Counted from the stretch's first letter, positions 17,450-55,229 are shown. The stretch: 64,000 nt of DNA from an uncultured delta proteobacterium (GCA_963733715.1 CAVTEN010000004.1:75109-139108); one strand, 5' to 3'. Notes: a model not told the origin generated them from the letters alone. Numbers and translations: made by a program.

Positions 17450-18316
17450 ATGGGGATTGAGTTAAAGAAATTCGACACCAGGCTGCAGGCTGAAGGGCCC
17501 GAGGTAAAGCATCTCGATCCCGCCGCGGCACCGTTTTACCTGCCGATTGGCGACGAAGTGGAAATCTTCACCGCCGCTTACAAAGCGCGACTGCCGCTGC
17601 TGCTCAAGGGTCCCACCGGATGCGGCAAGACGCGCTTCGTCGAGCACATGGCGCATCAACTGTCGTCGCTCGCCAACGGCCCCAATGAGTTGATCACAGT
17701 TGCCTGTCACGAGGATCTCACCGGCAGCGACCTGGTCGGACGTTTTCTGATCCAGGCCGACGAGACGGTGTGGGTTGACGGTCCGCTGACGCAGGCCGTG
17801 CGCCGCGGCGCGATTTGCTACCTCGACGAAGTGGTCGAGGCGCGCAAGGACACGACCGTGCTGATACATCCGCTGTCGGATCATCGGCGGATTCTGCCGA
17901 TCGAAAAACGCGGCGAGACGATCGAGGCGCACGAGGGATTTCTGCTGGTGATTTCGTACAATCCCGGCTACCAGAGCATCCAGAAAAATTTGAAGCATTC
18001 GACCCGCCAGCGCTTCGTGACGATCGAGTTCACCTATCCACCGGCGGATAAGGAAGTGGAGATTATCGCGCACGAGGCCGGCGTCGATCAGGATATCGCG
18101 CAGCAACTCGCGGTGCTGGGCGAGAAGGTGCGGCATCTGAAGGCGTCGGGATTGGAAGAAGGCGTCTCGACCCGACTGCTGATTTACGCCGGCGAGCTGA
18201 TCCGCCAGGGAATTGCGCCACGGCGCGCGGCGACCGTCGCCGTCACGTGGTCGCTCACCGACGAAGTGGACAGCAAGCGCGCGATCGACGAAGTGGTAAA
18301 AGCGATCTTTCCATAA
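17450..18316 (+). CDS. CbbQ/NirQ/NorQ-type MoxR AAA+ ATPase
   Basis: [19 protein letters not shown] (Walker A), [14 protein letters not shown] (Walker B), [22 protein letters not shown]. Confidence 0.85.
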
Positions 18317-18376: not shown

Positions 18377-19402
18377 ATGAGAGTCTTCGCAAACTTCAAA
18401 GTGATTCTGGCTGCGGCGGCGATGCTCGCCGTTGGCGCATCCGCGATCGCGCAGGAACTGCAAGGGCTCCAGGCACAGTCAGGACCGCGGCTGGATTTTC
18501 CCGCCGGACTCGCGACCGACGGCCGCGCAGTTTACGTTGCGAACAGCCGCAACAATACGGTCGAAGCGATCGATTTGACGGCGAGATCGCTGCGAATCGT
18601 CGCGGGCAAGCTTTTCCAGGAAGGCAACAATGACGGCGTCGGCGATGCGGCGCGCTTCAACAGCCCTGACGGCATGACGATCAACGGGCAGGATCTTTAT
18701 CTCTGCGACACCAACAATTCCGACATCCGCAAGATCACCGTCAGTGGCACTGTCACCACGGTCGCGGGCACCGCGAATATCGGGGGCACCGATGACGGCA
18801 CCGGTACGGCGGCGCACTTCAACAACCCGACGCAGATCGCGAGTGACGGCACCTCGCTCTACGTGGCCGACAGCGGCAACAGCGCGATTCGGCGCATCAC
18901 GCTCGCCGACTTCAAGGTCATAACGATCGCGGGACAATCGGGCACGGCAGGTAAGACTGAGGGTGGTCCGAAGAAGTCGCTGCTCAGCGGCCCGCGCGGA
19001 GTCGCAGTGGATAAAAAAGCGATCTACGTGGCGGACACCGGCAACGACGTAATCCGCAAGATCGATATAAGCTCGCTCGAGACCAGCACGATTGCGGGCA
19101 CCGGCGAAGAAGGCGACAAGGACGGTCCCGCGCTACAGGCGCAATTCAACAATCCCGGCGCTGTATGCACCGACGGATCGTTTCTGTACATCCTCGACGC
19201 CGACAATCATTCGATTCGCAAGATGGATCTCAACGCCAACACCGTGACCAAGCTGACTCTCGTCAACGGCCATATCGGTTCCGGCTGCGCGCTCACCAGC
19301 GACGGCAAGCAGCTCTATTTTTCAGACACGACAGAAAACGCCGTCGAGGTTGTCGATACGACCAGCGGCAACGTCAGCCAGCTCTATCCGCCGGGGCAGT
19401 AG
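18377..19402 (+). CDS. Secreted NHL-repeat beta-propeller protein
   Basis: Signal peptide MRVFANFKVILAAAAMLAVGASAIA. Six repeats of the type F(N)xPxGxAxDGxxLYVADxxNxxIRKI. Confidence 0.8.
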   Translation: MRVFANFKVILAAAAMLAVGASAIAQELQGLQAQSGPRLDFPAGLATDGRAVYVANSRNNTVEAIDLTARSLRIVAGKLFQEGNNDGVGDAARFNSPDGMTINGQDLYLCDTNNSDIRKITVSGTVTTVAGTANIGGTDDGTGTAAHFNNPTQIASDGTSLYVADSGNSAIRRITLADFKVITIAGQSGTAGKTEGGPKKSLLSGPRGVAVDKKAIYVADTGNDVIRKIDISSLETSTIAGTGEEGDKDGPALQAQFNNPGAVCTDGSFLYILDADNHSIRKMDLNANTVTKLTLVNGHIGSGCALTSDGKQLYFSDTTENAVEVVDTTSGNVSQLYPPGQ

Positions 19403-21286: not shown

Positions 21287-23212
21287 ATGAACGGAACCGG
21301 ACTGAGGGCGCAACTTTTCCGGCGCAAGCCCGCGTCGGCGTTGATGGCGGAGGCGGATGCGCGCGATGGCGGCCTCAAGCGGGCTCTGGGAGCGCTCGAT
21401 CTCACGCTGCTCGGAATTGGCGCGATCGTCGGCGCGGGAATTTTCGTGCTGACCGGCGTCGCCGCTGCAAAATACGCCGGCCCTGCGATCGTACTCTCGT
21501 TCATCGTGTCGGGATTCGCATGCGCGATGGCTGCCCTGTGCTACGCCGAGTTCGCCGCGATGATTCCCGTCGCAGGCAGTGCGTATTCATATTCGTACGC
21601 GACGATGGGCGAGCTGGTCGGCTGGATCATCGGCTGGGACCTCGTGCTCGAATACGCCGTCGGCGCCGCCGCGGTCGCAGTCGGATGGTCGGGCTACCTT
21701 ACCGTCATCCTGCAGGGGCTCGGGATTCATCTGCCAGTTGCGATAACCCACGCGCCCGGGTCGGCGCCCGGCGCGATCATCAACCTGCCCGCACTGCTAA
21801 TCGTGATGCTGATCACGTACGTGCTGTACATCGGCATCTCGGAGAGCGCGCGAATCAATTCGGTCATCGTCGGAATCAAGCTGGTTGTGATCGCCGCCGT
21901 GATCATCGTCGGCGCATTCTTCGTCAAGCCGGCGAACTGGAGTCCGTTCGCGCCGATGGGATGGTCGGGCGTGATGAAGGGCGCGGCCGTAATTTTTTTC
22001 GCCTACATCGGATTCGATGCGGTCTCGACGGCGGCGGAAGAGGTCGTCGATCCGAATCGCGACCTGCCGCTCGGCATCCTCGGTTCGCTGTTCGTATGCA
22101 CCGTGCTCTACATCCTGGTCGCCGGCGTGTTGACCGGGATGGTGCCGGCCCATCTGATCGACGTGAACGCGCCGCTGGCGTCGGCCTTCGTGCTGCGCGG
22201 GATGCATGCCCTGTCGGGATTTATCTCGCTCGGCGCGGTGGCGGGTTTGACCTCGGTGCTGCTGGTGCTGATGCTCGGCCAATCTCGCGTATTTTTCGCC
22301 GTGTCGCGCGACGGCCTGCTGCCGCCGGCCTTCAGCAAGATACATCCGAAGTATCGCACGCCGTATATCCCGACGACGCTGACCGGATTCGCGGTTGGAA
22401 TCACGGCGGCGCTGCTGCCGATACAGGAAATCGCGGAGCTGACGAATATCGGCACGCTATTCGCCTTCGCGCTCGTATGCTTCGGCGTGTGGATCTTGCG
22501 CCACGTCGAGCCGGACCTGAAGCGTCCGTTCCGCACCCCGCTGGTGCCTCTGGTGCCGATCCTTGGCGTCGTGTTCTGCGTCTATCTGATGGCGAGTCTG
22601 CCGGTCGTAACCTGGATTCGTTTTTTCGTATGGCTGGTGATCGGACTCGTCATCTATTTCAGCTACGGCCGCTTCCACAGCAAAGTGCAGAACAACGTAA
22701 TCGATAAGGCCGCCGCGTCAGGAAGAGATAGCGATCGCGATCCTAACCTCTCCTTGTCCGAGGAGAGGTCGGCGCGAGCCGAAGGTGAGCGACGGGAGAG
22801 GTACCACGCTGGCAGGCGCAACTCGCGTAGTTGTGCTGCTGTCGGGCGGCGGACCTGGTGTCTCTGCATTGAGGTTAGACGAGTTGGCGTCGGTGCAATG
22901 TCCGGCGTTGCACCTCACCCGGCGACACCGCTTTTCAAGTTTTCACTGGCTTACGCCGACCTCTCCTCGGACAAGGGGAGGTTAGGAAAAGAGCAAGCTA
23001 TTGCCCCGAGCGGTCGGCTGCTTTCTGGGCGGCTGCGGCAGCGGCGGCGGCCGCCGCGTGGGTCTGAGCGGTTTTTTCCATCGCGGCTTTGCGCTGCTCG
23101 CCGTGGGCGAGATTCTGCCGCATTTGCGCCGCGCCCGCGGCGCCGAGGTTCTGCGTTTCCCACTTCGGTTTGGAGACTGAGACCCACTGCCCGTCCTCAA
23201 GCGCGTAGGTGA
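21287..23212 (+). CDS. APC-family (cationic) amino acid permease; ORF runs about 170 codons past the conserved end into a MITE
   Basis: LTLLGIGAIVGAGIFVLTG, AELAAMIPVAGSAYSY-like AEFAAMIPVAGSAYSYSYA, 12 TM-like segments up to ..YFSYGRFHSKVQNN (about 22700). No in-frame stop until 23212. Both other frames have stops at about 22696-22708. Confidence 0.8.
   Translation: MNGTGLRAQLFRRKPASALMAEADARDGGLKRALGALDLTLLGIGAIVGAGIFVLTGVAAAKYAGPAIVLSFIVSGFACAMAALCYAEFAAMIPVAGSAYSYSYATMGELVGWIIGWDLVLEYAVGAAAVAVGWSGYLTVILQGLGIHLPVAITHAPGSAPGAIINLPALLIVMLITYVLYIGISESARINSVIVGIKLVVIAAVIIVGAFFVKPANWSPFAPMGWSGVMKGAAVIFFAYIGFDAVSTAAEEVVDPNRDLPLGILGSLFVCTVLYILVAGVLTGMVPAHLIDVNAPLASAFVLRGMHALSGFISLGAVAGLTSVLLVLMLGQSRVFFAVSRDGLLPPAFSKIHPKYRTPYIPTTLTGFAVGITAALLPIQEIAELTNIGTLFAFALVCFGVWILRHVEPDLKRPFRTPLVPLVPILGVVFCVYLMASLPVVTWIRFFVWLVIGLVIYFSYGRFHSKVQNNVIDKAAASGRDSDRDPNLSLSEERSARAEGERRERYHAGRRNSRSCAAVGRRTWCLCIEVRRVGVGAMSGVAPHPATPLFKFSLAYADLSSDKGRLGKEQAIAPSGRLLSGRLRQRRRPPRGSERFFPSRLCAARRGRDSAAFAPRPRRRGSAFPTSVWRLRPTARPQARR
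22741..22986. mobile_element. 246-bp MITE-like element (family D) with 33-bp terminal inverted repeats
   Basis: Left end CCTAACCTCTCCTTGTCCGAGGAGAGGTCGGCG. The right end CGCCGACCTCTCCTCGGACAAGGGGAGGTTAGG is its reverse complement with 2 mismatches. Each arm is itself a hairpin. Confidence 0.75.
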
Positions 23213-23579
23213 AGACGAGATATTTGAGATTGCCGGTGGCGAGGCCCTTGGTCGTTCCCGGTTTCACGGGATTGTACTCGACGCCCCCGAGCTTGCAGCT
23301 CACGACCAGGTGATTGTGCGGCCCGTAAGTCGGCAGGTATTCGAACTTCTGCAACAGGTCGATGTACACCTGACCCTTGGCCTTCTTTTCATCCTGCTCG
23401 TCAAAGTAGGGCCCGGTCACATCTGAGAGTTTGTCCTGCAGCGAATTCTGGAGTGCGGGAGTGAGGTCCTTTTGTGCGCGCGCGTGCTGCAAGTCATACG
23501 CATGCGCCCGCGAAGCGCTCAGCGGAAAAAAGAGCGCGGCCGCAAGGGCGACCGCGCTCAGGTTCTTGAGATTTTTCAT
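22998..23579 (-). CDS. Secreted hypothetical protein with poly-Ala C-terminus
   Basis: Signal MKNLKNLSAVALAAALFFPLSASRAHA. Last gene downstream of the exbB-exbD-exbD-VWA run. Tail HAAAAAAAAAAQKAA. Confidence 0.6.
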   Translation of the reverse strand: MKNLKNLSAVALAAALFFPLSASRAHAYDLQHARAQKDLTPALQNSLQDKLSDVTGPYFDEQDEKKAKGQVYIDLLQKFEYLPTYGPHNHLVVSCKLGGVEYNPVKPGTTKGLATGNLKYLVFTYALEDGQWVSVSKPKWETQNLGAAGAAQMRQNLAHGEQRKAAMEKTAQTHAAAAAAAAAAQKAADRSGQ

Positions 23580-23626
23580 AACGTCCCGGCCACCATCATA
23601 GTAGACGAATGGCCGGACGCAAATAT

Positions 23627-24847
23627 TTACTGACTGCCGCTACCGCCATTCAACCCGCGGCCGAACGCAGACACCTGCGACTGCCACTGATCGCCGAACG
23701 CGAGGATCAGCACCTGCTGGTTGATGTGCGCGTCCTTGGTCAACGACTTCATCGAGCCGCCGCCCGCAGTAGCCAGCACTTTGTACGCGGCTTGCGTCTG
23801 TCGATAGAACGCCGGCAACGGCGAGATCTTCGGCGGCTCCTCGCGATGCACCTTCAGCCAGAACTCGCGCTCGAAGCGTTCGTGCTCTTCAGCCGCGACG
23901 TCAACGGTGTTGAAGGTGCCGTTGTTGCTCTTGAACTGCCGAATCAGCGACAGCAGCGGCGCGAAGTCCTCCGTGCGCGGAGGCGAGTCGCCTACCAGCA
24001 CGACGACCTTCTTCGCATACGGCTTCCAGTCCATCTTGTTGATTCCCGTCTCGACGGCGCCGAGCGTGTCTTCTTCCCACTCGCCGCCACCCATCGCCTG
24101 GATGCCGTTTAAGAAGTCGCTCAACTTTTGTGGCGAGAGCGTCAGCGGCTGGATGTTCATCTTCTCGCCCTTGCCGCCGAACACGATTATTCCGATTCGC
24201 GCGATCGGCACCAGCCGGTGAATCGATTGCACCAGTTGCATCATCTTGGCTTTGACGTCGTCGATGATCAGTTTCATCGAGCCGGTGCCGTCGATTACCA
24301 GCACCACGTCAAGGCCCTTGCGCCGCAACTCTCCGATGAACCCGCCGAAGCCAGAGCCGATGCCGTGGCCGTAGCCTGAGCCCATGCCGCCGCCACGCCC
24401 GATTCCGATACCGCCGCCGCCCGCAGCGCGCACGTAGTCACTGGCGAGACCGACGGCCTGCGACGTGTCGACCGCAGTCGGCTGCTCCATCTGCTGCGGC
24501 GCCGAGTCGGGCATCGGCACTTCGGGCATGTCGAGATCCTGCATCTCGTTGCCGCCGCCGCCACCGCCGCCCGCTTCGAGGTTCACCATGATCAATTCGC
24601 GGCCACGCTGTTCGTGCACCGTGATGATCAGGAAGAGCAGGGCGAGCACGTGAAGCGCGACCGATAGTGGAAAGGGCCCGATCAGCAGACCGAGCGCGTC
24701 TTTCATCTTCTGCAGGCGGGTCGCGTCCGCCTCGTCATCCTCGCGGTTCGCCTCGGCCGCGGCCTCCCGCTTGCCGATGATCCGGTAGAAGATGAAAGCG
24801 ACGACGAACGTCGACAGAACAAGCAAAATGATAATTGGAACGATCAT
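23627..24847 (-). CDS. Membrane protein with TonB-like N-terminal anchor, Gly-rich spacer and C-terminal VWA domain
   Basis: ATG 24845-24847 (MIVPIIILLVL). Second TM FPLSVALHVLALLFLIITVHEQ resembles the E. coli TonB anchor (LLSVCIHGAVVAGLLYTSVHQ; S-x3-H). Poly-Gly spacers. VWA/MIDAS LDVVLVIDGTGSM ..VVVLVGDSPP. Confidence 0.7.
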   Translation of the reverse strand: MIVPIIILLVLSTFVVAFIFYRIIGKREAAAEANREDDEADATRLQKMKDALGLLIGPFPLSVALHVLALLFLIITVHEQRGRELIMVNLEAGGGGGGGNEMQDLDMPEVPMPDSAPQQMEQPTAVDTSQAVGLASDYVRAAGGGGIGIGRGGGMGSGYGHGIGSGFGGFIGELRRKGLDVVLVIDGTGSMKLIIDDVKAKMMQLVQSIHRLVPIARIGIIVFGGKGEKMNIQPLTLSPQKLSDFLNGIQAMGGGEWEEDTLGAVETGINKMDWKPYAKKVVVLVGDSPPRTEDFAPLLSLIRQFKSNNGTFNTVDVAAEEHERFEREFWLKVHREEPPKISPLPAFYRQTQAAYKVLATAGGGSMKSLTKDAHINQQVLILAFGDQWQSQVSAFGRGLNGGSGSQ

Positions 24848-24857
24848 ATATAAATTC

Positions 24858-25316
24858 CTACGCTCCGCCTCCCGGCGTCGCGGCACCGCCGCCGCCCGGA
24901 GGGAGCGAAGACACTGCTATTGCTATCGCTTCCGCGCCAGCCGACTTGGCCAAATCCAGGATGCGAACCATATCACCAAGGATAACCTTCGGGTCGCCCT
25001 GGAAAATCACAATTTTGTCGGTTGAATTCTGGAGCGCGTCATGTAGTTGGGGTACCAGTTCGGCCTCGGTAACCTGCTTCTCGTTAAGGAAGACCTGGTG
25101 GTCGGCATTGTAGGTGACGATGATGCCTTTGGGCTTGTCGGTCGGCGACGGCGCACCCTGCTTGGGCAAATCGACGTGGGCTGCGGATTCGATCGTCACG
25201 GCCGTCGTCACCATGAAGATGATCAGCAGGACGAGAAAGATGTCGGTCAGCGGGGTGATGTTGATGTCGGCGAACACCCCGCCGCCTTTGTTACTGCTCA
25301 TTTTTTTTGCTGCCAT
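24858..25316 (-). CDS. exbD: ExbD/TolR biopolymer transport protein
   Basis: FADINITPLTDIFLVLLIIFMVTTAV..VDLP..IVIFQGDPKVILGDMVRILDLAKSAG. Confidence 0.88.
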   Translation of the reverse strand: MAAKKMSSNKGGGVFADINITPLTDIFLVLLIIFMVTTAVTIESAAHVDLPKQGAPSPTDKPKGIIVTYNADHQVFLNEKQVTEAELVPQLHDALQNSTDKIVIFQGDPKVILGDMVRILDLAKSAGAEAIAIAVSSLPPGGGGAATPGGGA

Positions 25317-25341
25317 GCCGATATACCTCTACAGGTAGCGA

Positions 25342-25792
25342 TCAACTGCCTCCACCGGAGGTGTTGGCCATTTGCGCACCCGTGACCCGCTTGGCTGCGA
25401 TTGCAATTTGTTCTGCGTGAGCTTCTTTGGCGATACCCAGGATCCGCACCATGTCGCCGAGCAGCACTTTGCGATCGCCCTGGAACACGACGATCTTCTG
25501 ATCCACCTTGGCCGAGCGCGTCGGTCAAGGCGGATTTGAGTTCGCGCTCGGGCACGTCCTTCGAGTTCACGAACAGCTCGTGCTGCGCAGTGTACGTCAC
25601 GATAACGCCCTTGTTCTCGGGTGCGGTGTTGGTCGCGTTGGGCAGATCGACGTGCGCGGCGGATTCGATGGTGACAGAGGTCGTCACCATGAAGATGATC
25701 AGCAGAACCAAAAAAATATCGGTCAGCGGGGTGATGTTGATGTCGGCGAAAACGCCGCCACCCTCGCCGCCATGAGGTCCGCTAATTGCCAC
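25342..25792 (-). pseudogene. exbD: Second ExbD/TolR paralog, frame broken as assembled
   Basis: GVFADINITPLTDIFLVLLIIFMVTTSV.. reads to ..SALTDALG. The conserved KVDQKIVVFQGDRKVLLGDMVRILGIAKEAHAEQIAIAAK..GGGS* is in the adjacent frame (stop 25342-25344). The shift is near 25493-25500. Confidence 0.8.
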
Positions 25793-26423
25793 GCGATTGT
25801 CTCCCCTGAAGGGCTGCGTCGATCAGGCGGTCGTCGTTGATGTGCTGGATCGCGCTGATGTTCTCAACCTTGACCGAGAAATAGTTGTAGAAAATAACCG
25901 CGACGATCGCGACCGCCAGTCCGAGCGCAGTCGAAATCAACGCTTCCGAAATACCGGCCGCGACGACCGAGAAACCGCCGGTGCCCATGATTGCCATCGA
26001 CTGGAACGCCACCAGAATACCAACCACGGTGCCGAACAGCCCGATGAACGGGGCAGATGCGCCCGCGGTCGCGAGCACCCAGATGTAGCGTTTGAACTCG
26101 AGGCCTTCCTGGTAGCGCCGCTCGTCGTCGAGCTCGAGCAGATGATCGCGGTCCATCGTCTGCGCGCCCGAAATCAGCGTGTGGAAGATACGCTCTGCCG
26201 CCGTCCTGCGCGCCTGCGTCGCCTGCAGCGCTTCGTTGAATTTACCCTGGCGCAGTTGCGGGATCAGCGCGTCCGCGAGCTTGGCCGTCCGCGGTCCGAC
26301 GCCCCACAGTGCCCATACGCGCTCGAAAATAATCGCGAGGCATACGACCGAAATGAAGAGCAGGGGATACGTTGCATAGTATCCCTGCTGAATCATACCC
26401 AAAATTCCAAATTGGCTTTGCAT
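25782..26423 (-). CDS. exbB: MotA/TolQ/ExbB proton channel protein
   Basis: 213 aa. ..LATAGASAPFIGLFGTVVGILVAFQSM..GISEALISTALGLAVAIVAVIFYNYF. Confidence 0.9.
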   Translation of the reverse strand: MQSQFGILGMIQQGYYATYPLLFISVVCLAIIFERVWALWGVGPRTAKLADALIPQLRQGKFNEALQATQARRTAAERIFHTLISGAQTMDRDHLLELDDERRYQEGLEFKRYIWVLATAGASAPFIGLFGTVVGILVAFQSMAIMGTGGFSVVAAGISEALISTALGLAVAIVAVIFYNYFSVKVENISAIQHINDDRLIDAALQGRQSRGN

Positions 26424-26892
26424 CTCTTACCCTCTCGAGATTGATATAAATTGAGCGGCGAAATTCTGGCCCCGCTCGAACCGTTGCGATAACTGTCCCA
26501 AAATGCCTCGGCGGTTCACCCCTGAACCGGACGTTAGCCCAATTTTGGCGAAAAGGGCTACCTCACGCCGGTAAAAGTTTCCCGTGATGGCGCGGAAAGT
26601 CTGAATGCAACAATAGAAAGTATTTGTCAAGGGTCGCCGATCGGAAGGAAAAAATTTGAACATTTCGTCCACGATTGCGAATGCGCACAAGCGGCTCTCC
26701 AGGCCGTGACATGTAGCGCGATGGTCGCACCTGCTCGACATCTGTCGTCATCTACTCTACGCCGTTGGCCATGCTGGCGACTAGATCAACTCTGATCGCT
26801 AATCTGCACCGCCGACGCCCCAACCGCCTTGACTTCTTGCCCCCTCACGTCTATCCAGAAGCTTGCCACAGCAAGCCCACAGGTTGACCGCA

Positions 26893-27528
26893 ATGCGGTC
26901 TTTGTTTTTGTGGCGATTGACGCTTTTGAGAAATCTGGACCCACTCAATAATCAGACGGTGAACAGGGCCGCTATCTTCATAATTGCAGCCACGTTCATG
27001 GTTGTACTCGCGTCTTGCAAGGCGACTCCGGCGTCGGCGCCCCTTGGCCCCCCGCCTGAGCCTGTTGCGAAAGGCCCGACTGACGAGCCGAGCAAGGAAC
27101 TACCCAAGGATCTGTTCCCCTCGATGCCCATCTACCCCGGCGCCAAAGTCGAGCACATCCGCAAGCCCAAGGGCGCGATGCGCGAAATCCTGCTCAGCTC
27201 CGACTCGACGATGCAGCAGATGGTTGGCTACTACAAAGAGGAGCTGAAAAAGAACGACTTCCACATCACGTCCTCGCTGATCATGCCCGCGCGCAGGACC
27301 TGGTCGTGCGATTTCCACTACAATGGGCGCCCCGGCAGCATCATGCTCTATCCGAGCGATCAGGATAAGACGAAAATGACGATCGATCTTATCTACGAGC
27401 TGCCGGCGCACATCGACGAATCGCTGGTGGAACCCAAGGAAGATTTCGACATAGAAGGACCGGGCGAAATGGCCCAACAAGCACCGAACGCAAATCCAAA
27501 TCCAAGCGAGAAAGAGAAGAGGAATTAG
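26893..27528 (+). CDS. Putative lipoprotein
   Basis: Lipobox FMVVLASC. The start is uncertain: ATG 26893, or GTG 26959, which would give a 20-aa signal peptide. No family recognised. Confidence 0.55.
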   Translation: MRSLFLWRLTLLRNLDPLNNQTVNRAAIFIIAATFMVVLASCKATPASAPLGPPPEPVAKGPTDEPSKELPKDLFPSMPIYPGAKVEHIRKPKGAMREILLSSDSTMQQMVGYYKEELKKNDFHITSSLIMPARRTWSCDFHYNGRPGSIMLYPSDQDKTKMTIDLIYELPAHIDESLVEPKEDFDIEGPGEMAQQAPNANPNPSEKEKRN

Positions 27529-42850: not shown

Positions 42851-43085
42851 GCCACGTGGTATTTCAGGAAAATCTGTGATGACGGCCAGCTCAAATCCGC
42901 TCTACAAGGGTAATTTTAGGAAGATCTACACTACAAATACGACTATTCTTGGCTCGGGCTTGCTAATCAATTCCACTGCCAGCCTGGCTGATGCTGAAGC
43001 TACTTTTAAGATGTACAAGATGCTAGGATGCGCAACGATTCTTTGAAGTTAGCCGGCCGTCACACGGTCGGAGGGGAGGGGTAAT

Positions 43086-44192
43086 ATGAGACGACCGATG
43101 GTATTCGTCTTGCTCGCGGGGTTGGCGGCGATGCTCGCTTCGGTGATGGTGTACTCCGCCTTGAAGCGGAGAGAAGCCGAAGTTCAGAACGCGATGTCGC
43201 ACAACGTCGAGGTAGTGGTCGCGGCGTACGATCTCCCACTCGGCACCAAGATCGATCTGGGCGAAGTGAAATTGGCGCGCTGGTCGGCCGACAGTCTGCC
43301 CGAAGGTGCGTACACCGATCCCCACCAGGTCATCGGCAGCTACGTGAAGAACTCGTTGGTAGCCAACGAGCCAATCGTGCAGGCCAAGCTGTTCACCGGG
43401 GACAAGACGGCGGGCGTGATGCCCTTGCTGATTCCTTTCGGGATGCGCGCCGTATCGGTTCCGGTGGATGAGGTCAGCGATGTCGCGGGCTTCGTGCTGC
43501 CGCATACTCGCGTCGACGTGCTCGTTGCGACCCAGGGCGAAGGCTCTGGCGCAGGCGATAAATCGTTCTCGAAAGTGATTCTGCAGAACGTCGAAGTGCT
43601 CGCGGTAGCGCAGGAAGTCGAACAAAAGAAAGACGAGCCGCAAATCGTGAAAGTCGTCACGCTGCTGGTGACGCCGCAGGAGTCCGAGCGCCTGGCGCTT
43701 GCGAGTCATTCGGGAACGCTGCGCCTCGCGATGCGCAACTACAATGATAACAAGATCGTTCTGACCAGCGGCAGCGACGTCGCGCAGATGCTGCGGGCGT
43801 ACAGTCTGGCGCCTGACGTTCCGGTGATGGCGGTACAGCCTGAGCCTCGTCACGTGGCCGTCGCGGTACCGCATCGGCGCAAGGCGGTCGAGATCGAGAT
43901 TCTCCGCAACGGCAAATCGTCCGAGTCCGTGTCGTTTGTGAATGAAGCGGCAGCGGATGTCGACGGCTCGAGCAAGTCAGTGGGCCATATCCGCAAGGCG
44001 GCGGTGAAAGACGACGAAGACACCGCTGACGACGCAACCGACGCCAGCGCCGATGCGACAGGTGCAACGACGGTGGCGAGCGCTCCCGCGCCCGAGCGTC
44101 ACGACCTTGCGGCGCCCATCGTTGTTCCGGCCGGCGCACCCAACGCGACGGCGGATCACGTGCCGACGCCTAAGACGATCGACATACCTTAA
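43086..44192 (+). CDS. cpaB: Flp pilus assembly protein CpaB/RcpC
   Basis: N-terminal TM MVFVLLAGLAAMLASVMVY. SAF-like VVVAAYDLPLGTKIDLGEVKLARW. RcpC-like MRAVSVPVDEVSDVAGFVLPHTRVDVLV..LQNVEVLAV. Acidic/Ala-rich tail. Confidence 0.85.
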   Translation: MRRPMVFVLLAGLAAMLASVMVYSALKRREAEVQNAMSHNVEVVVAAYDLPLGTKIDLGEVKLARWSADSLPEGAYTDPHQVIGSYVKNSLVANEPIVQAKLFTGDKTAGVMPLLIPFGMRAVSVPVDEVSDVAGFVLPHTRVDVLVATQGEGSGAGDKSFSKVILQNVEVLAVAQEVEQKKDEPQIVKVVTLLVTPQESERLALASHSGTLRLAMRNYNDNKIVLTSGSDVAQMLRAYSLAPDVPVMAVQPEPRHVAVAVPHRRKAVEIEILRNGKSSESVSFVNEAAADVDGSSKSVGHIRKAAVKDDEDTADDATDASADATGATTVASAPAPERHDLAAPIVVPAGAPNATADHVPTPKTIDIP

Positions 44193-44213
44193 TTAAGCCG
44201 CGACGAAGACGAG

Positions 44214-46121
44214 GTGAAGAAGATGAAACCAACACGAGGATGTGGACTGCTTCCGTGGCTAGTTGCTGCTTTCAGCATGCTCATGCTTCGGCCCGGCCTG
44301 CTGTATGCGGACGACGGCACGACAATGGCTCTCGCCTTGAATGCTGGCGAGAGTTACGTAATCAACAACGTCAGCCCCGGCGAAGCGCCGGCTGTGAACG
44401 TGATCACAAACCCGCATGCACTGGTGGTGCATAACGAGGAGCCGGGCAAGGTTGTCCTCCTAGGTGCAGAAGCGGGCGAATGGACCGTCGCGGTCAAGAC
44501 CACTGATGGCAGCACCGTTAAGTATGATGTGACGGTTAAGTCGGTCGCCAACATCAAAGACATCAATAATCCCGGCAAAGCCCCGGGACCAATCGAGGGT
44601 ACCGGCGCGACCACTGGCAGCGCGGCTCCTGTCGTAGCCAAGATGGATCCGGGCACAGGTCCGGTTGCATCGCCTTCGTCACCCGCTTCGATTTCTTCAT
44701 CGGCTTCGTCTGCTTCCTCATCTTCAGGAAGCTATACGACCACGACCGATACGGTGGCGGCCGCTTCGCCCAGCGCGCCGGTAGCGGCAGCGCCCGGAGT
44801 TGCAACACCTCCCGCTCCTATCAGCCACTCGACCTTTGACTTTGCTCCTTCGTCTCCGGCCGCTTCCTACGCGCCTCCGGCGCCGTCGAGTCAGACCGCT
44901 TCGGCATCGCTGTCGAACGAGCGGTATCGGGTCGATCCGTCTGTCAGTCTGAATGGCGGCGAATTGCGCTCGGGTGCAGTGTCTGGCGGACGGCATTACC
45001 TGCCCGAAGACGGAGTGCAGTTGCAGACCGGGAGCTCGAGAATAATCGACTTTGCAAGCAAGCTCCGCCGCGTGTCGATCGCCGATACGACGGTCGCGGA
45101 CATCCAGGTAATCAATCCGTTCCAGGTCAATCTGATTGGCCATAAGCCGGGCTTCACGACACTTGCGGTTTGGGACCAGACCGGGCAGTACCAGGAGCGC
45201 CCGGTGCGAATCGATCCCAACGGCAAACAGCAGGTGTTGCTCAACACGATGGTGGCGGAGCTGGATCGTTCTGCAATCGAGAACCAGGGAACTAACATTT
45301 CGGTCGCGCTCGCCCGAGCAGGAATATCGCTGGTTGGATTGCCGGGTGCGGTGGCGACACCGTTCAACCCGTCGACGAGCATCACCTCTCCTTCCGGGGT
45401 GGTCACTACCTCTGGTAATTCGCTGGTTGCTCCCGGATCCCTTAACTCGCTGATCCTGTCGCAGGGGATGACTTATGGTTTAGCGGTGGGAAACAGTAAT
45501 TATCAGCTCCAGGGATTTTTCCAGTACCTCGAGAACCACCAGCTCGCAAAGATTCTCGCGCAGCCGCATCTGCTGGCGAATTCAGGTGAAGAAGCAAAGT
45601 TTCTGTCTGGCGGCGAAATTCCAATCGTGCTCGCACAGGCTCTTAATACTTCGATCGTATTCAAACAGTTCGGCACTTCGGTTGAATTCGTTCCGACTGT
45701 CATAGGCCGCAATGATATCGAGCTGCTCGTGAAGCCCGAAGTATCGGAACCCGATTTTGCCCACGGTGTGCAGCTGTTCGGCTTCAGCGTCCCGGCATTC
45801 GTGACTCGGCGCGCTGAGACCCTGGTGCAGATGAAGGACAATCAGACGTTGATCATCGCGGGCCTGATTCTGCACGAAAAGAAGACGCAGATTCAGAAAG
45901 TCCCATACATAGGCGACGTCCCTTACATCGGCGGACTGTTCCGCAACACCAGCTATTCGAACACCGAAACCGACCTCGTGATGAGTGTAACCCCGCAAAT
46001 CGTGCAGCCGCTGCCCGATGGCGCCTCGGTTTACAACCCGACTTCGGTGCCCGATCTGACGCGTGAGCAGATCGAGACCCGTCGCCTGGCGCAGCCGGAC
46101 ATTACACGGCCTAGATTTTAG
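44214..46121 (+). CDS. cpaC: CpaC/RcpA secretin
   Basis: Two pilus-N-type domains (..VINNVSPGEAPAVNVITNPHALVV.. and ..RVSIADTTVADIQVINPFQVNLIGHKPGFTTLAVW). Secretin core LANSGEEAKFLSGGEIPIV..FKQFGTSVEF..VPYIGDVPYIGGLFR. Confidence 0.88.
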   Translation: MKKMKPTRGCGLLPWLVAAFSMLMLRPGLLYADDGTTMALALNAGESYVINNVSPGEAPAVNVITNPHALVVHNEEPGKVVLLGAEAGEWTVAVKTTDGSTVKYDVTVKSVANIKDINNPGKAPGPIEGTGATTGSAAPVVAKMDPGTGPVASPSSPASISSSASSASSSSGSYTTTTDTVAAASPSAPVAAAPGVATPPAPISHSTFDFAPSSPAASYAPPAPSSQTASASLSNERYRVDPSVSLNGGELRSGAVSGGRHYLPEDGVQLQTGSSRIIDFASKLRRVSIADTTVADIQVINPFQVNLIGHKPGFTTLAVWDQTGQYQERPVRIDPNGKQQVLLNTMVAELDRSAIENQGTNISVALARAGISLVGLPGAVATPFNPSTSITSPSGVVTTSGNSLVAPGSLNSLILSQGMTYGLAVGNSNYQLQGFFQYLENHQLAKILAQPHLLANSGEEAKFLSGGEIPIVLAQALNTSIVFKQFGTSVEFVPTVIGRNDIELLVKPEVSEPDFAHGVQLFGFSVPAFVTRRAETLVQMKDNQTLIIAGLILHEKKTQIQKVPYIGDVPYIGGLFRNTSYSNTETDLVMSVTPQIVQPLPDGASVYNPTSVPDLTREQIETRRLAQPDITRPRF

Positions 46122-46198
46122 TTGGACGTAGGAGAAGACATAGCCGAGTAATTAGTGCATGATATGGCACCGCATAGCTGAAGCAGGGAGAGTGTGAA

Positions 46199-47422
46199 GT
46201 GTCATCGCTCGGTAAAAAAAATGATGGAAGGCACGGCGGGCTGAAAGTTCAATTGGTCGGCCAAAGCGACGACCATCGGACGGAAGTCCGGGACGCTTTG
46301 GCCGCCTTGGGCGACCCCGTGCTGAACATCAATGAAATCGAACCGGATCCGGATGTCGCCACTGACGTCAACTTTGACGTTACGATGGTGGTTTTCAACG
46401 GCAACGACGAACTATCTCTGAGCTATCTCAATACCCGGGCGGGGCAAGAGCCTCGTCCGGCTCTTTTTGCGCTACTGCACGATCGTTCCCCCGATCTGAT
46501 GAAGCGGGTGCTGAGGGCGGGAGCCGATGAGCTCCTGTTCCTGCCGCTGGATCCGGGCGACGCTACCCGCGCACTGCTCAAGATAAGCGAAACCCGCCGT
46601 CGCGAAGAAGTTCACGTCGGAGGAGGCACCATCGTTTCGATGGTGAGCCTGATCGGCGGCACCGGGGTGACGAGCCTGGCGGCTAACCTCGCGCTGGCGC
46701 TGCGCTACGCGTTCGACAAACGGGTGGCAGTAGTCGATCTCGATCTGCAAACGGGTGGGCTCTCGGTGTTTCTGAATCTCGAGCCCGAGCGCACGATCAT
46801 GACGCTGACCGAGGGAACGCGAAAGCTCGATTCGATTCAACTCGAATCGGCGCTCAGCAAGCACGCGTCCGGAATCTACCTGCTGGCGGCACCCAAGCGG
46901 ATCGAAGACAGCGAATTGGTCACCGACGCTACGGTCGGTGCGACGCTCGAGCTGATGCGCCAGTTGTTCGACTTCGTGATCGTGGATTGCGGCACGCATA
47001 TCGACTCGAACACGGTCGCGGCGTGGGAGCGATCGAATCATCTGTTTTACGTGCTCGACCAGTCGATCGGCGCGGCGCGATGCGCCTGGCGATTCGTCGA
47101 TCTGGTGGGACGGCTGGGGCTGCAGGGAATCGAGCCCAACTTCATTCTAAGCCGCTTCGTGCCCGGTCATCCGATCACCGAAGATCAGCTGAGCCATACT
47201 CTGGCCAAAGCGATTCACACGCGTATTCCGCGCGATGAAAAAGTTCTCGAGCGCGTGCAGTTGAGCGCACAGGATTTGTGGCAGGTAGCGCCGAACTCGC
47301 CGCTGGCCAAGAGTGTCGAGGACCTGGCGCGACGGCTCGAAGTCGGCAACGAAATCCCCGATAACGATTCCTCGAATTCTCTGGTTTCGCGCCTCTTGAA
47401 TGTTATCGGCGCGCGCAATTGA
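46199..47422 (+). CDS. tadZ: TadZ/CpaE: pseudo-receiver + ParA/MinD-like ATPase
   Basis: N-terminal receiver-like fold without an obvious phospho-Asp pocket. Deviant Walker A SLIGGTGVTSLAANLA..VVDLDLQTGG. Confidence 0.85.
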   Translation: MSSLGKKNDGRHGGLKVQLVGQSDDHRTEVRDALAALGDPVLNINEIEPDPDVATDVNFDVTMVVFNGNDELSLSYLNTRAGQEPRPALFALLHDRSPDLMKRVLRAGADELLFLPLDPGDATRALLKISETRRREEVHVGGGTIVSMVSLIGGTGVTSLAANLALALRYAFDKRVAVVDLDLQTGGLSVFLNLEPERTIMTLTEGTRKLDSIQLESALSKHASGIYLLAAPKRIEDSELVTDATVGATLELMRQLFDFVIVDCGTHIDSNTVAAWERSNHLFYVLDQSIGAARCAWRFVDLVGRLGLQGIEPNFILSRFVPGHPITEDQLSHTLAKAIHTRIPRDEKVLERVQLSAQDLWQVAPNSPLAKSVEDLARRLEVGNEIPDNDSSNSLVSRLLNVIGARN

Positions 47423-47431
47423 GGTACCACA

Positions 47432-48808
47432 ATGAAGCTGGTTGAGAGAATCTCGCAGCAGAACGCCGCAACGCCGGCGCCGTTCCAGCGTTCGCTGATG
47501 AGTAACGGCGCCGCCAAGCGTACTGTCAAAGACGCGCAGGCCGAAGGATTTCAGCAGCTCAAACTCGCGGTCCACAACCGCCTGTTTGAGATGTTGGACG
47601 TTACCCGGCTTGAGAGCCTCGAGCCGGTGCTGGCGGCGCAGAAGGTCACCGAAGCTATCTCCGCGATTCTCGACGACGAGGGACGGCTGCTCACCGACAT
47701 CGACAAGACTCACCTCATCGAAGAGATCAAAAACGAGCTGCTCGGACTCGGGCCGCTCGAGCCGCTTCTGTGGGACGATGAAATCACCGATATCCTGGTC
47801 AACGGGCATAACCAGGTTTACGTCGAAAAGCGCGGCAAGCTCCACACCACCGAGGTCAAGTTTCAGGACGATCAGCACTTGATGCTGATCATCGATCGGA
47901 TCGTGTCGCAGGTCGGACGCCGGGTCGACGAAGCGTCGCCGATGGTCGATGCGCGCTTGCCCGACGGTTCTCGTATCAACGCGATCATTCCGCCGCTGGC
48001 GCTCGATGGACCGGCGCTCTCGATTCGCCGATTCGGCCGCAAGCGCTTCAACATCGACGACCTGGTCGAGAAGAAGACCGTCGTACCCGAGATTGTCGAG
48101 TTCCTGCGCACGATCGTTCGCGCGCGCCTCAACATCCTGGTTTGCGGCGGCACCGGCTCCGGCAAAACGACCATGCTCAACTGCTTGTCGCTGTTTATCC
48201 CGGCCGACGAGCGAATCGTGACGATCGAGGACTCCGCGGAACTGAGTCTTCAGCAGCCGCACGTGGTCAGGCTCGAAACGCGGCCGGCGAACGTCGAAGG
48301 CAAGGGCGAAGTCAGTCAGCGCGACCTGGTCAAGAACACCCTGCGTATGCGGCCGGACCGCATTATCGTCGGCGAGGTCCGCGGCGGCGAAGTGTTCGAC
48401 ATGTTGCAGGCGATGTCGACCGGTCATGACGGGTCAATCGCGACTATCCACGCCAACACTCCCCGCGACAGCATGGGACGCCTCGAGATGATGATGCTGC
48501 TGTCGGGCGTACAGATTCCGCAGCGCGCGATGCGCCAGCAAATCGCGTCCGCACTCAACATCATCGTTCACGTTTCGCGTCTGTCAGACGGCTCGCGCAA
48601 AATATTGCGCATCTCCGAGATCAGCGGAATGGAAGGCGAGATGGTGATGATGCAGGATCTGTTCGAGTTCAAGCGCACCGGAATCGGACCGGGCGGCGAA
48701 GTGCTCGGCGCGTTTATCGCCACCGGAATTCGTTCAACCTACTCGCAGCGGCTCGAGGCTGCGGGATACAAACTCGACGGCAAAATCTTCCGCAACACTA
48801 TCGGATAA
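47432..48808 (+). CDS. tadA: TadA/CpaF secretion ATPase
   Basis: ITDILVNG, Walker [49 protein letters not shown]. Confidence 0.92.
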
Positions 48809-48813
48809 ATACT

Positions 48814-49761
48814 ATGGATTTTTTGATGGCAAGCGGAATATTCGCGCTCGTCTTCATGGGCGTGCTGATATTTACCAGCAGTCGCGGCACTGAAGTCGAG
48901 CAATCGCGCGAGGTGGCCCGGCGCCTGACCCGACCCCCCGACGAGATAGAAGTCAACGTCATGCGCAAGCAGCGGCCCCAGGAGGGAGTGCTGCTGGGCG
49001 CTCTGTACAGGATGAACCTGCTGCGCAAACTCGAAGAGGCGATGTGGCAGGCCGGCATGTACATGAGGGTCGGCGACATCCTGCTGATCATCGTGCTGGC
49101 ATTCGGCGCGGGTTTGTTCGGTGGCAATCTCTTCTTCCACGACATCTGGTTCGGTGTGATTACCGGCCTGGTCACTGGCGCGATGCCACTGTTCTACATC
49201 CAATTCATGAAGAAGCGGCGGTTGAAGGCCTTCGCAGCTCAGTTGCCGTTCGCACTTGACCTCATCAAATCGTCGCTCGAGGCGGGCCATTCGCTGCAGC
49301 GCGCTATGCAAGTTCTGGTCAGCGAGTTCGCCGATCCGCTGGGCGCCGAATTCCGCACCGTGCTCGAGCAGAACCGGATTGGACTGCCGCTGCCACGCGC
49401 GCTCGAGGACATGCTCAAGCGAGTTCCCGAGGATGACCTCCGCCTGCTGGTCGTCGCGGTGCGGGTCCAAACGGAAGTTGGATCGAGCCTGGCGCAAATT
49501 GTCGGTCGACTCTCCGAAATCGTACGAATCAGGCAGCGCTTGCGGATGCAAATCCGGGCACTGACCGCTCAATCGCGCATGGGCGGCATGGTGGTCGGGA
49601 TCCTGCCGATCATCGTGCTTACAATATTCAGCGTGGTTCAACCGGGCTATACGGATAAATTGTTCCATGACCCAACCGGTCAGAAGATTTTGAAATTTGC
49701 GATCGGTTCGGACCTGCTCGCTCTGATCACCATCAGGCGACTACTGAAGGTGGACTACTAG
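48814..49761 (+). CDS. tadB: TadB (type II secretion F-family inner-membrane platform protein)
   Basis: QLPFALDLIKSSLEAGHSLQRAM..RALTAQSRMGGMVVGILP. Confidence 0.85.
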   Translation: MDFLMASGIFALVFMGVLIFTSSRGTEVEQSREVARRLTRPPDEIEVNVMRKQRPQEGVLLGALYRMNLLRKLEEAMWQAGMYMRVGDILLIIVLAFGAGLFGGNLFFHDIWFGVITGLVTGAMPLFYIQFMKKRRLKAFAAQLPFALDLIKSSLEAGHSLQRAMQVLVSEFADPLGAEFRTVLEQNRIGLPLPRALEDMLKRVPEDDLRLLVVAVRVQTEVGSSLAQIVGRLSEIVRIRQRLRMQIRALTAQSRMGGMVVGILPIIVLTIFSVVQPGYTDKLFHDPTGQKILKFAIGSDLLALITIRRLLKVDY

Positions 49762-49762
49762 T

Positions 49763-51006: not shown

Positions 51007-52491
<1,485 letters not shown>

Positions 52492-52757
52492 TCCTCACAC
52501 CCAAAGGCCGCCGTTTCCCTGGAGGGGCAAACGCGGCTTAGCGTAGCATTCTTGCCCCTGCCAGTAGGCCTGTCAATAAGGGGTCAAAGCACCTGATTTA
52601 TCAGGATAATCCAGAGAATGAGGCGTTGCTGAGATGAAACGTGCCCAGAAATACCGAGGCTGATTTCAATTCGATGAAGCAGGAAGGCGAGAGGGAGAAA
52701 GTCGCAGAGCGCTAACGCCACATCGCTTTGACAGGGAGCACGAGGCTTCCCCAGTTG

Positions 52758-55081: not shown

Positions 55082-55229
55082 AAAAGCCCTCCTTACTTTT
55101 TGCCGGGAAGCTCCTAAACAGACGACCATCCGGGAAGACCGGGATCCGAGAGAAAGGCGGCGTCCGAGGCATGTTAGATCCTAGAAATAAAGATAGGCGC
55201 GAGGCAATTCTGAGTAAAGTCGGAACCGG

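Follow-up and report, generated by a model that had tools for sequence, protein, structure and literature searches.

An operon in the genome of Candidatus Binatus, a soil bacterium of the phylum Binatota, probably encodes a Ton/Tol-type 5:2 proton motor (ExbB plus an ExbD1/ExbD2 pair) with its own dedicated transducer; we put the probability of this reading at about 0.75. All positions given here refer to the window, the whole 64,000-nucleotide stretch of DNA that was analyzed (Table 1). The putative transducer is the 406-aa product of the fourth gene, which consists of a first transmembrane (TM) helix, a cytoplasmic loop, a TonB/TolA-type second TM helix, a Gly-rich linker, and a von Willebrand A (VWA) domain. 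The reading draws on the genes present, the invariant motif, the fold, topological reasoning, and synteny. The first-pass annotation of this DNA had also proposed a force transducer, and that idea is supported, but it is not new. Its remark that no characterized example was known is outdated as to description, although the described class is a computational prediction: Williams-Jones et al. (2025; Mol Biol Evol 42:msaf138, PMC12204202) proposed, from sequence and AlphaFold 3 models, a class of vWA force transducers encoded beside tolQ/tolR-like motors, with Tichowtungia aerotolerans as the type example. In their AlphaFold 3 complexes the TM histidine is placed on the motor, a co-occurring TPR protein is frequent but not obligatory, and Binatota is not among the phyla listed (PMC12204202).

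By its described features and gene context, the window protein can be placed as a real member of the predicted vWA force transducer class. Like the others, it carries the Ser/His motif of TonB/TolA in a TM helix near its N-terminus, it has a disordered post-TM linker with a candidate strand and a C-terminal VWA fold, and its gene sits with ExbB/ExbD motor genes. It differs in three respects, which, together with the extension of the class to Binatota, are what is new here: the protein has one more TM helix, N-terminal to the anchor; the operon has no adjoining TPR gene and carries in that partner's place a gene for a lineage-restricted secreted protein of 193 aa; and there are orphan paralogs in the Binataceae, one of which joins the anchor-linker-VWA module to a zinc-finger anti-sigma domain beside an ECF sigma gene.

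Open reading frame and Pfam checks found all five genes on the minus strand at the positions first assigned to them. They are tightly spaced, with exbD1 beginning at a GTG codon 11 nt inside exbB and the next three gaps measuring 25, 10, and 47 nt. The VWA gene starts with the ATG at 24,847, which has an AGGA sequence 8-9 nt upstream. An in-frame GTG at 24,886 was considered as its start and rejected; it overlaps exbD2 and has no counterpart in the related locus L002.

Table 1. Features of the motor-VWA operon and its surroundings (window coordinates; residue numbers are those of the 406-aa protein)
Feature	Position	Strand	Remarks
exbB/tolQ-like proton-channel subunit	25782..26423	-	213 aa; PF01618 MotA_ExbB, E 7.6e-27; operon gene 1
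exbD1/tolR-like subunit	25342..25792	-	PF02472, E 3.9e-15 on N-terminal part; frameshifted
exbD2/tolR-like subunit, heterologous exbD1 partner	24858..25316	-	152 aa; PF02472, E 4.9e-25
Candidate VWA force transducer	23627..24847	-	406 aa; VWA_2, E 2.8e-9; VWA, E 2.9e-6
Extra N-terminal TM helix (TM1)	24776..24844	-	residues 2-24, within AF2 helix 2-35
TM2, predicted TonB/TolA-type motor-docking motif Ser62-x3-His66-x6-Leu73	24617..24688	-	residues 54-77; AF2 helix 58-81
Post-TM alternating hydrophobic stretch ELIMVNLE, candidate "motor box" strand	24575..24598	-	residues 84-91
Gly-rich, partly Pro-containing linker	24323..24574	-	residues 92-175; helix FGGFIGELRRKG at its end
VWA domain	23645..24322	-	residues 176-401; MIDAS-like D186-x-T188-x-S190, D/E256, E259, D287
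Secreted protein, last operon gene	22998..23579	-	193 aa; signal peptide ending AHA
Putative lipoprotein, divergent from exbB	26863..27528	+	221 aa; lipobox LASC

The association of the VWA gene with ExbB/ExbD genes, without which the force transducer idea would fall, is very strong and phylogenetically wide. An exbB gene and two exbD genes are present in 52 of the 52 Binataceae type-A loci that have enough flanking sequence, ExbB and ExbD are encoded in all seven distant homolog loci (30-45% identity), and the same holds for all 24 metagenome loci whose flanks are long enough, 22 of these loci having two exbD genes. At least five gene orders occur among the 24 metagenome loci, which speaks for a functional link and against mere inheritance of the gene neighborhood. 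The same anchor is also found far from any motor gene, in 26 Binataceae loci of a second type (type B) and in an FHA-containing variant (L090), so the anchor alone is no proof of motor coupling.

The TonB-type S-x3-H motif noticed in the anchor at first reading is well conserved. Ser62 and His66 are each present in 39 of 39 relatives (mean column identity 24%), which is far above what chance conservation of a TM helix would yield, and Leu73 is the majority residue at its position (20/39). The helix as first quoted, FPLSVALHVLALLFLIITVHEQ, spans residues 59-80 (nt 24,673-24,608). Among metagenome homologs with N-terminus sequence, at least 65 of 66 have SxxxH; a script missed six of them, of which five carry the motif by eye and the sixth is a parsing failure. 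With hhalign, the Ser/His pair falls in register with S16/H20 of E. coli TonB (P 2.4e-4, probability 44%) and S18/H22 of E. coli TolA (P 7.5e-4, probability 25%). A search of PDB sequences with the N-terminal profile found neither TonB nor TolA and matched unrelated S...H TM helices; homology of the anchor to TonB/TolA cannot be shown statistically.

The extra TM helix that was reported ahead of the anchor is real and is conserved within Binataceae according to the AlphaFold2 (AF2) model and the alignment; it was found in P0004, P0013, P0122, P0124, P0125, and P0127 and is missing from more distant relatives. Most relatives have a single N-terminal TM preceded by a basic N-tail, and in the anti-sigma paralog a cytoplasmic zinc finger lies N-terminal to the same TM. 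The basic loop between TM1 and TM2 of the window protein points to an N-out, loop-in, VWA-out arrangement. A cytoplasmic VWA domain, which would not fit a force transducer, is not borne out, and topology logic puts the domain in the periplasm. Behind TM2, the segment ELIMVNLE occupies the place of the motor box that has been described in TonB/TolA and in vWA-class proteins, and most relatives have an [IV]x[IV]x[LIV]-type pattern after the TM; the AF2 monomer has no strand predicted at ELIMVNLE, and residues 84-105 have a pLDDT below 50.

The spacer had been called Gly-rich and Pro-containing; residues 92-175 include more than 25 Gly and about 5 Pro. Its pLDDT is below 50 at residues 143-163, and the helix at its end is conserved (F167 in 38/39 and R175 in 33/39 relatives). 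The remainder of the protein is, as first annotated, a VWA domain and not a TonB C-terminal domain: residues 179-401 adopt a VWA fold in the AF2 model with a pLDDT above 90, and a Pfam search of the 406-aa protein (E<=0.1) returned VWA families only and no TonB_C (PF03544). The MIDAS-like DGTGS corresponds to D186-G-T188-G-S190, with the three named residues kept in 39, 38, and 37 of 39 sequences, respectively; the MIDAS residue Asp287 is missing in 10 of 39 relatives.

Similarity to TonB thus includes a single functional anchor helix with S-x3-H-x6-L and N-in, C-out orientation, a candidate strand behind the TM, a periplasmic spacer that is long and flexible, and a gene position after exbB-exbD. 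Unlike TonB, the window protein has a VWA domain in place of TonB_C, so TonB-box strand exchange is not expected; moreover, its spacer is rich in Gly and not in Pro, the fourth SHLS residue, Ser31 in TonB, is replaced by Val77, and there is the added TM helix. Parallels with TolA are the anchor (S18-x3-H22 in TolA) and a glycine run and candidate strand after the TM. The window motor also fits the TolQ/TolR models slightly better than those for ExbB/ExbD, and the periplasmic TPR protein in the clusters of other phyla is reminiscent of CpoB in the Tol-Pal system. On the other hand, there is no TolA domain III, the locus has neither tolB nor pal, and it has two ExbD/TolR genes where Tol-Pal has one.

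The closest solved VWA structures are those of BatA/BatB proteins of the Bacteroides aerotolerance operon (3ibs and 4jdu), and the best Foldseek match in the PDB is Bacteroides thetaiotaomicron BatB (3ibs, E 1.3e-8), with Rpn10 and integrin I domains matching at a TMt of about 0.7. Like BatA/BatB, the window protein is predicted to be a membrane-anchored, periplasm-facing VWA protein with a MIDAS, and many of its relatives have TPR proteins in the same operon. It might then be an ordinary BatA/BatB-type protein, or the partner of a MoxR-type ATPase, that lies beside a motor serving a canonical TonB or TolA encoded elsewhere, and a CbbQ-type AAA+ gene does lie about 5 kb away (17,450-18,316). 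We consider this very unlikely. The NCBIfam BatB model (NF047506) gives 15.9 bits against a cut-off of 350, and the neighboring genes include no MoxR, DUF58, or BatC-E gene. Between the AAA+ gene and the operon lie four unrelated genes on the opposite strand, and none of the distant loci has the AAA+ gene. The linkage to ExbB/ExbD outlasts rearrangement into several gene orders across phyla, and an ordinary Bat-type protein leaves the invariant TM Ser/His unexplained. Bat operons are not known to contain ExbB/ExbD genes, nor their proteins to have a Ser/His anchor motif.

The motor subunits themselves resemble TolQ/TolR as much as ExbB/ExbD. The exbB product matches the NCBIfam TolQ (2.1e-30) and ExbB (1.7e-22) models, both under the equivalog cut-offs, and the TolR model matches corrected exbD1 (1.3e-21) and exbD2 (1.3e-22). 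The two ExbD proteins are about 65-70% identical, and the TM Asp (PLTDIF) can be read in both. The exbD1 gene is where it was first annotated but is not an intact ORF there, as its 451-nt span cannot be divided by three; uncorrected, the ORF runs on to 25,298 and ends in junk sequence, the true C-terminus being encoded in a different frame. The cause is an extra C at 25,510-25,511, where relatives (L003, L016, and L010) have one C fewer in "GGCC"; after correction the protein has ~149 aa, and the intact L002 ortholog has 150.

A genuine break of exbD1 by this one C would mean that the locus is decaying in this genome and that the motor and the system are nonfunctional here. This seems quite improbable, since all the other operon genes are intact and 94-99% identical to their relatives, the out-of-frame C-terminal part of exbD1 still aligns to exbD2 at about 60% identity, and the DNA 3' of the shift is ~92% identical to L003, the closest ortholog, with no second indel. 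Single frameshifts are present in different locus genes of other long-read assemblies (ExbB of L010, L011, and L032; VWA of L035; ExbD of L059; sigma of L076), a typical assembly-indel pattern, and because of this an assembly indel is likelier than pseudogenization.

We infer both motor coupling and force delivery for the VWA protein of this operon. TM2, through Ser62, His66, and Leu73, would dock it on the motor, as in TonB and TolA, and ELIMVNLE would probably add a short strand to the periplasmic domains of a putatively heterodimeric ExbD pair. The flexible Gly-rich linker of about 85 residues could span the periplasm and so present a VWA domain, presumably metal-dependent (MIDAS-type), to a partner in the periplasm or outer membrane. 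Proton flow through the motor would then pull on, or cyclically engage, the contact between the VWA domain and its ligand. As biological output, tethering of the envelope, adhesion or gliding, and signaling are conceivable.

The last of these is raised by the VWA paralogs of the Binataceae, which include, besides the operon copy, another copy with two TM helices and a fusion to an anti-sigma domain. In 26 Binataceae loci, an ECF sigma gene (its product matches TIGR02937 above cut-off) is followed by a gene in which a ZAS-type anti-sigma N-terminus with HxxxCxxC (zf-HC2 above cut-off in P0102) is fused to TM-linker-VWA. The paralog, though not the window gene, is similar to ZAS-type (zf-HC2) anti-sigma factors: in P0073 and P0102 it has the HxxxCxxC N-terminal domain, one TM, and a periplasmic sensor, and its gene overlaps the ECF sigma stop codon by 4 nt. 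It differs from them in that the TM has the TonB-type motif and the sensor is the VWA module of a motor-linked protein; no description of an anti-sigma factor with such a TM motif and a motor-type VWA domain was found in the literature. Within a genome the operon and anti-sigma copies are 83-97% identical, and they group by genome clade and not by type; the two evolve in concert. In other clades the same module is fused to a cytoplasmic FHA domain.

The system might mainly serve trans-envelope signaling and not mechanical tethering or transport: the VWA domain would be the sensor of a ligand in the periplasm or outer membrane, energy from the motor would reset or probe the contact, and the state would be reported to transcription via the paralogous anti-sigma factor, which could dock on the same motor. 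The sigma/anti-sigma loci and the FHA fusions favor this, as do the high within-genome identity and clade grouping insofar as they imply selection for identical periplasmic and TM parts. It nevertheless appears unlikely: the window and the DNA within 8 kb of each type-A locus are free of sigma and anti-sigma genes, comparison of the regions upstream of sigma and exbB revealed no common promoter motif, most phyla have only a motor-VWA-TPR module without a signaling domain, and neutral gene conversion could explain the concerted evolution. Equally doubtful is the more specific proposal that one Binataceae ExbB-ExbD1-ExbD2 motor serves all three anchor-linker-VWA paralogs, with the anti-sigma factor a motor-docked sensor gated by force or proton-motive force. 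A pull on the shared VWA ligand, or its release, would there translate directly into ECF sigma activation, and gene conversion would keep the TM and periplasmic parts of transducer and anti-sigma factor interchangeable. If true, this would be a new way to couple a 5:2 motor to transcription, different from FecR-type signaling, where the anti-sigma factor is no client of the motor.

Downstream of the VWA gene, a secreted protein encoded in the same direction had been noted; this is correct, and its signal peptide can be read from the sequence. The usual partner encoded with the system in most phyla is a 690-820-aa secreted TPR protein, present in 7/7 distant and 21/24 metagenome loci. A profile scan of the window found no member of this family next to the operon; the sole match to the TPR model (489-238, E 1.4e-4) is in a TPR-repeat gene at the far window end. 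Scans with the same model found no TPR partner in the 26 type-B loci, L071, or L090. The 193-aa protein, which on comparison is unrelated to the TPR family, had no match in a Pfam search and no significant one in a PDB fold search; AF2 models it (pLDDT 72.7) as a helix, a five-stranded sheet, and a long C-terminal helix. In 46 of 47 Binataceae type-A loci its gene is the one after the VWA gene, and of the protein's 233 database matches, all those listed with a source name are from Candidatus Binatus. In the Binataceae a small secreted ORFan thus appears to take the downstream slot of the usual TPR gene, and it is a candidate lineage-restricted partner of the VWA domain. At the other end of the operon, the putative 221-aa lipoprotein, which has neither a Pfam nor an NCBIfam match, adjoins exbB in 49 of 51 Binataceae loci and is a possible accessory gene of the system.

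The minus strand carries a head-to-tail array of five genes: exbB, exbD1 and exbD2 (the first and second ExbD/TolR-like genes), a gene for a 406-aa VWA protein, and a gene for a secreted protein called Sec193 here. They are separated by one 11-nt overlap and gaps of 25, 10, and 47 nt, and are therefore taken to form one operon. The first-pass annotation had proposed this layout, including the secreted protein downstream in the same direction; all five genes were found at the coordinates in the table, and the Pfam assignments are clear. The motor subunits are as near to TolQ/TolR as to ExbB/ExbD in NCBIfam, and none reaches an equivalog cut-off. The closest matches of the VWA protein are annotated as Candidatus Binatus or Binataceae, phylum Binatota.

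Features of the operon and its surroundings in the window, with one anti-sigma locus from a relative
Feature	Coordinates	Strand	Remarks
exbB	26423-25782	minus	MotA_ExbB 7.6e-27 (Pfam)
exbD1	25792-25342	minus	ExbD 3.9e-15 (Pfam); frameshifted
exbD2	25316-24858	minus	ExbD 4.9e-25 (Pfam)
VWA protein, 406 aa	24847-23627	minus	VWA_2 2.8e-9 (Pfam)
Sec193, secreted, 193 aa	23579-22998	minus	no Pfam family
Putative lipoprotein, 221 aa, lipobox LASC	26863-27528	+	divergent from exbB; no family match
Strongly conserved box TTGACAAA-N10-TTTGTTGCATT	26596-26630	minus	~200 nt upstream of exbB; contains inverted repeat
6-bp hairpin GAGCGG/CCGCTC	26453-26477	minus	~30 nt upstream of exbB start
CbbQ/NorQ-type AAA+ ATPase	17450-18316	+
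Secreted NHL-repeat protein	18377-19402	+	adjoins CbbQ/NorQ-type ATPase gene
Tad/Flp pilus cluster	43053-50695	+	RcpC/CpaB, secretin, CpaE-like ATPase, CpaF/T2SSE ATPase, TadB/C-like
Sigma-54 response regulator (activator)	51010-52494	minus
IS110-family transposase	55218-56435	+
Anti-sigma locus, example	L001 7117-11055		25 others, including L017, L018, L036, L037, L040, L043

The exbD1 gene is present as first described, but its frame is broken within the 451 nt originally allotted to it. The open reading frame as read runs on to 25298 with a junk tail, and the conserved C-terminus (VDQKIVVFQGDRKV...) sits in a different frame. Alignment with close relatives, all of which lack it, places an extra C at 25510-25511 that splits the gene in two frames; the orthologue at locus L002 is intact (150 aa). 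Single frameshifts hit other, differing genes of the locus in several long-read assemblies of relatives, and for this reason the extra C is read as a probable assembly indel, a genuine frameshift and true pseudogenisation being quite unlikely. At another locus (L003, 6551-7988) three ExbD-like stretches are present where two are expected.

The VWA protein starts at the ATG at 24847, which is preceded by AGGA; an in-frame GTG farther upstream is not conserved. When 1.84 billion representatives were searched exhaustively, 2650 relatives were retrieved at E<=1e-3, and an AlphaFold2 model built from an alignment of 39 of the sequences (mean pLDDT 80.8) predicts helices at residues 2-35 (TM1), 43-56, and 58-81 (TM2), another, conserved helix spanning 167-177, and, with pLDDT >90, a VWA domain over residues 179-401; residues 84-163 are disordered in it apart from one low-confidence helix. 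Foldseek matches this model to VWA folds, namely BatB (3ibs, E 1.3e-8), Rpn10, and integrin I domains; TM-scores on the target are ~0.7, and no TonB-like fold is among the matches. The full-length protein has no significant match among PDB sequences. A TonB_C domain at the C-terminus was rejected, as none was found by Pfam search or by Foldseek, and the proposal that a VWA domain stands in place of the TonB C-terminal domain is borne out by Pfam, AlphaFold2, and Foldseek together. MIDAS-like residues are well kept in the alignment: D186 in 39/39, T188 in 38/39, and S190 in 37/39, with further such positions at D/E256 (34/39), E259 (39/39), and D287 (29/39). That the protein is a Bat-like protein or MoxR partner lying beside the motor genes by coincidence is very improbable, and is disfavoured by the model scores, the gene context, and the invariant Ser and His described below. 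Pairing with the MoxR/CbbQ-type ATPase was likewise rejected, because of the distance and strand of the ATPase gene and because other loci lack it.

The second helix carries the S-x3-H motif (Ser62 and His66) for which the first-pass annotation had named it a TonB-type anchor. S-x3-H stands in the N-terminal TM helix of 41 of the 44 full-length distant members read; of the other three, two keep the His alone and the third lacks both residues. Ser62 and His66 are among just 12 invariant columns of the 39-sequence alignment, whose mean identity is 24%, an invariance that is slightly overstated for the family as a whole because the alignment took motif carriers and left out the three exceptions; Leu73 is the majority residue at its column. 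In a metagenome sample at least 65 of 66 N-termini carry the motif (a hydrophobicity filter missed six, five of which carry it on inspection, while the sixth is a parsing failure). Most members also have an alternating pattern after the helix, for example ELIMVNLE, IRVKVVD, and IEIKVPP, which appears to correspond to the "motor box" strand known for TonB and TolA (PMC12204202). With hhalign the Ser and His fall in register with S16/H20 of E. coli TonB (P 2.4e-4, probability 44%) and S18/H22 of TolA (P 7.5e-4, probability 25%). Homology of so short a helix cannot be proven by sequence statistics, and the N-terminal profile retrieved from PDB sequences only unrelated TM helices (LH antenna, ND5), not TonB or TolA; the case for a putative TonB/TolA-type anchor rests on the invariant motif and its context.

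The extra N-terminal helix noted earlier ahead of the anchor corresponds to the predicted TM1 and is found in Binataceae members. In most relatives a single TM helix follows a basic N-tail, which puts their VWA domain outside. The TM1-TM2 loop of the window protein has seven Lys/Arg, so by the positive-inside rule its orientation should be N-out, loop-in, and VWA-out, and in a Binataceae paralogue a cytoplasmic zinc-finger domain precedes the same helix. All three features place the VWA domain outside, not in the cytoplasm.

A scan of the genome collection returned 80 loci, all from Binataceae, 53 of which are of the window type; breadth was therefore sought by looking up individual contigs and by scanning metagenomes from a seed in another clade. 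ExbB and two ExbD genes are present at all 52 window-type Binataceae loci with enough upstream DNA, and Sec193 is next after the VWA gene in 46 of 47. Seven distant homologues (30-45% identity) were looked up individually, and 7/7 have MotA_ExbB with one or two ExbD genes, and 7/7 a secreted, mostly TPR-containing protein of a single family (685-824 aa at full length, one copy being cut by a contig end), in varying gene orders. The metagenome scan gave 80 loci, 24 of them with an upstream flank of at least 2.5 kb and a downstream one of at least 4.5 kb; ExbB and ExbD are present in 24/24 of these, two ExbD in 22/24, and the TPR family in 21/24, in six arrangements, one of them divergent. The expected association of VWA proteins with ExbB/ExbD genes thus holds at all 52, 7, and 24 of these loci, and since it survives so much rearrangement it indicates a functional module. 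The large secreted TPR proteins beside VWA genes (L083-L089, L091-L170) are one homologous family across phyla, and those of different clades match by BLASTP down to 1e-9. At locus L087 two more secreted proteins (322 and 513 aa) lie between the TPR and motor genes.

The first-pass annotation knew of no characterised example of such a protein. The idea of a motor-linked VWA protein is right but was already published, as a computational prediction only and with no reported phenotype, when the vWA force transducer class was described (Williams-Jones et al. 2025, PMC12204202); the literature search found no follow-up work on the class. Its members have an SHLS TM helix, a disordered region with the motor box, a ~100-residue domain II, and a vWA C-terminal domain; AF3 models put the His on the motor, and the class was reported in Proteobacteria, Planctomycetes, Verrucomicrobia, Bacteroidetes, and Rhodothermaeota (PMC12204202). 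Binatota are outside these phyla, Binataceae members add the N-terminal TM helix, and in the window Sec193, which is unrelated to the TPR family, occupies the downstream slot, with no TPR gene beside the operon. The window locus independently confirms the class as real and tightly motor-linked in a further phylum, and demonstrates that another protein can take the place of the TPR partner. Source names point to Gemmatimonadota and "Binatia" for other class members.

A dedicated motor-transducer pair is the best explanation (probability about 0.75), and the invariant Ser/His, the VWA fold outside, and the motor linkage all support the motor-driven reading first put forward. TM2 would dock on ExbB through Ser62 and His66, the strand after it would engage the periplasmic domains of ExbD1/ExbD2, the Gly-rich linker would cross the periplasm, and the MIDAS-type VWA domain would hold a partner on which the motor pulls. 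To our knowledge, Ton and Tol are the sole well-understood routes by which inner-membrane energy reaches the outer envelope in diderm bacteria, and were a VWA-headed protein a third type of client, the same motors would drive metal-dependent protein-protein adhesion.

Related modules are also found apart from the motor. At 26 Binataceae loci outside the window an ECF sigma gene (TIGR02937 above cut-off) has its stop codon overlapped by a VWA paralogue gene. This paralogue joins a ZAS-type anti-sigma N-terminus with HxxxCxxC (in P0102 zf-HC2 scores above cut-off) to the same anchor (SxxxH), linker, and VWA domain; in 18 of the 26 loci a third VWA paralogue, with two TM helices, comes next. Within 8 kb of these loci there is no gene for ExbB, ExbD, or the TPR family. 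In more distant relatives from other clades (P0222, P0224, P0240, P0242, P0247, P0265) a cytoplasmic FHA domain precedes the same SxxxH helix and VWA domain, with a ~150-200 aa C-terminal extension, and no motor genes were found near the one FHA locus examined (L090, 7001-8824). The anchor-VWA module is therefore connected in some cases to signalling domains in the cytoplasm, and "orphan" copies also carry the anchor motif. Orphan TonB paralogues exist, and these copies are like them.

Operon and anti-sigma locus types co-occur in the same genomes (for example L035/L017, L021/L076, L041/L065). Within a genome, their cores from anchor to end are 83-97% identical, and a neighbour-joining tree groups them by genome clade, not locus type, a pattern that indicates concerted evolution or gene conversion; no shared promoter motif is evident between the sigma and exbB upstream regions. 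The anti-sigma paralogue points to a variant of the motor-transducer model centred on signalling, which we consider unlikely, though less so than the other alternatives. The sigma/anti-sigma wiring and the concerted evolution of the module together provide a concrete lead to function, making a signalling role testable and, through the Binataceae, offering a way to test what the whole vWA class does. At locus L047 (6855-8560) a Sec193 gene comes after a VWA gene of the anti-sigma type, either because the two loci recombined or because the contig is chimeric.

Sec193 has only 233 database relatives, and all those listed with a source name are Candidatus Binatus. A fold search of the PDB gave no match for Sec193 at E<=0.001. 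That Sec193 is a remnant of the TPR partner was rejected (nothing by BLASTP, hhalign probability 0.9%). The putative lipoprotein gene, which may be part of the system, keeps its divergent position beside exbB in 49 of 51 Binataceae loci; both it and Sec193 are, by position only, candidate VWA partners. In the exbB leader 85% of cells are paired in the small hairpin, against 32-54% in slid registers, and compensatory changes are seen at two pairs; an overall leader structure beyond this hairpin is not supported. Neither the hairpin nor the upstream box matches an Rfam family, an Rfam scan of the window found two tRNAs only, and sigma-70 promoter and terminator scans of the operon gave no sites in excess of those in shuffled sequence. 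No canonical TonB (TonB_C) or TonB-dependent receptor was found in 20 large window ORFs scanned or in the L002 annotation. The operon's other neighbours are housekeeping genes, which include an amino-acid permease, short-chain dehydrogenases, a low-molecular-weight phosphatase, a NUDIX hydrolase, CysS, haem biosynthesis genes, and PhaC.
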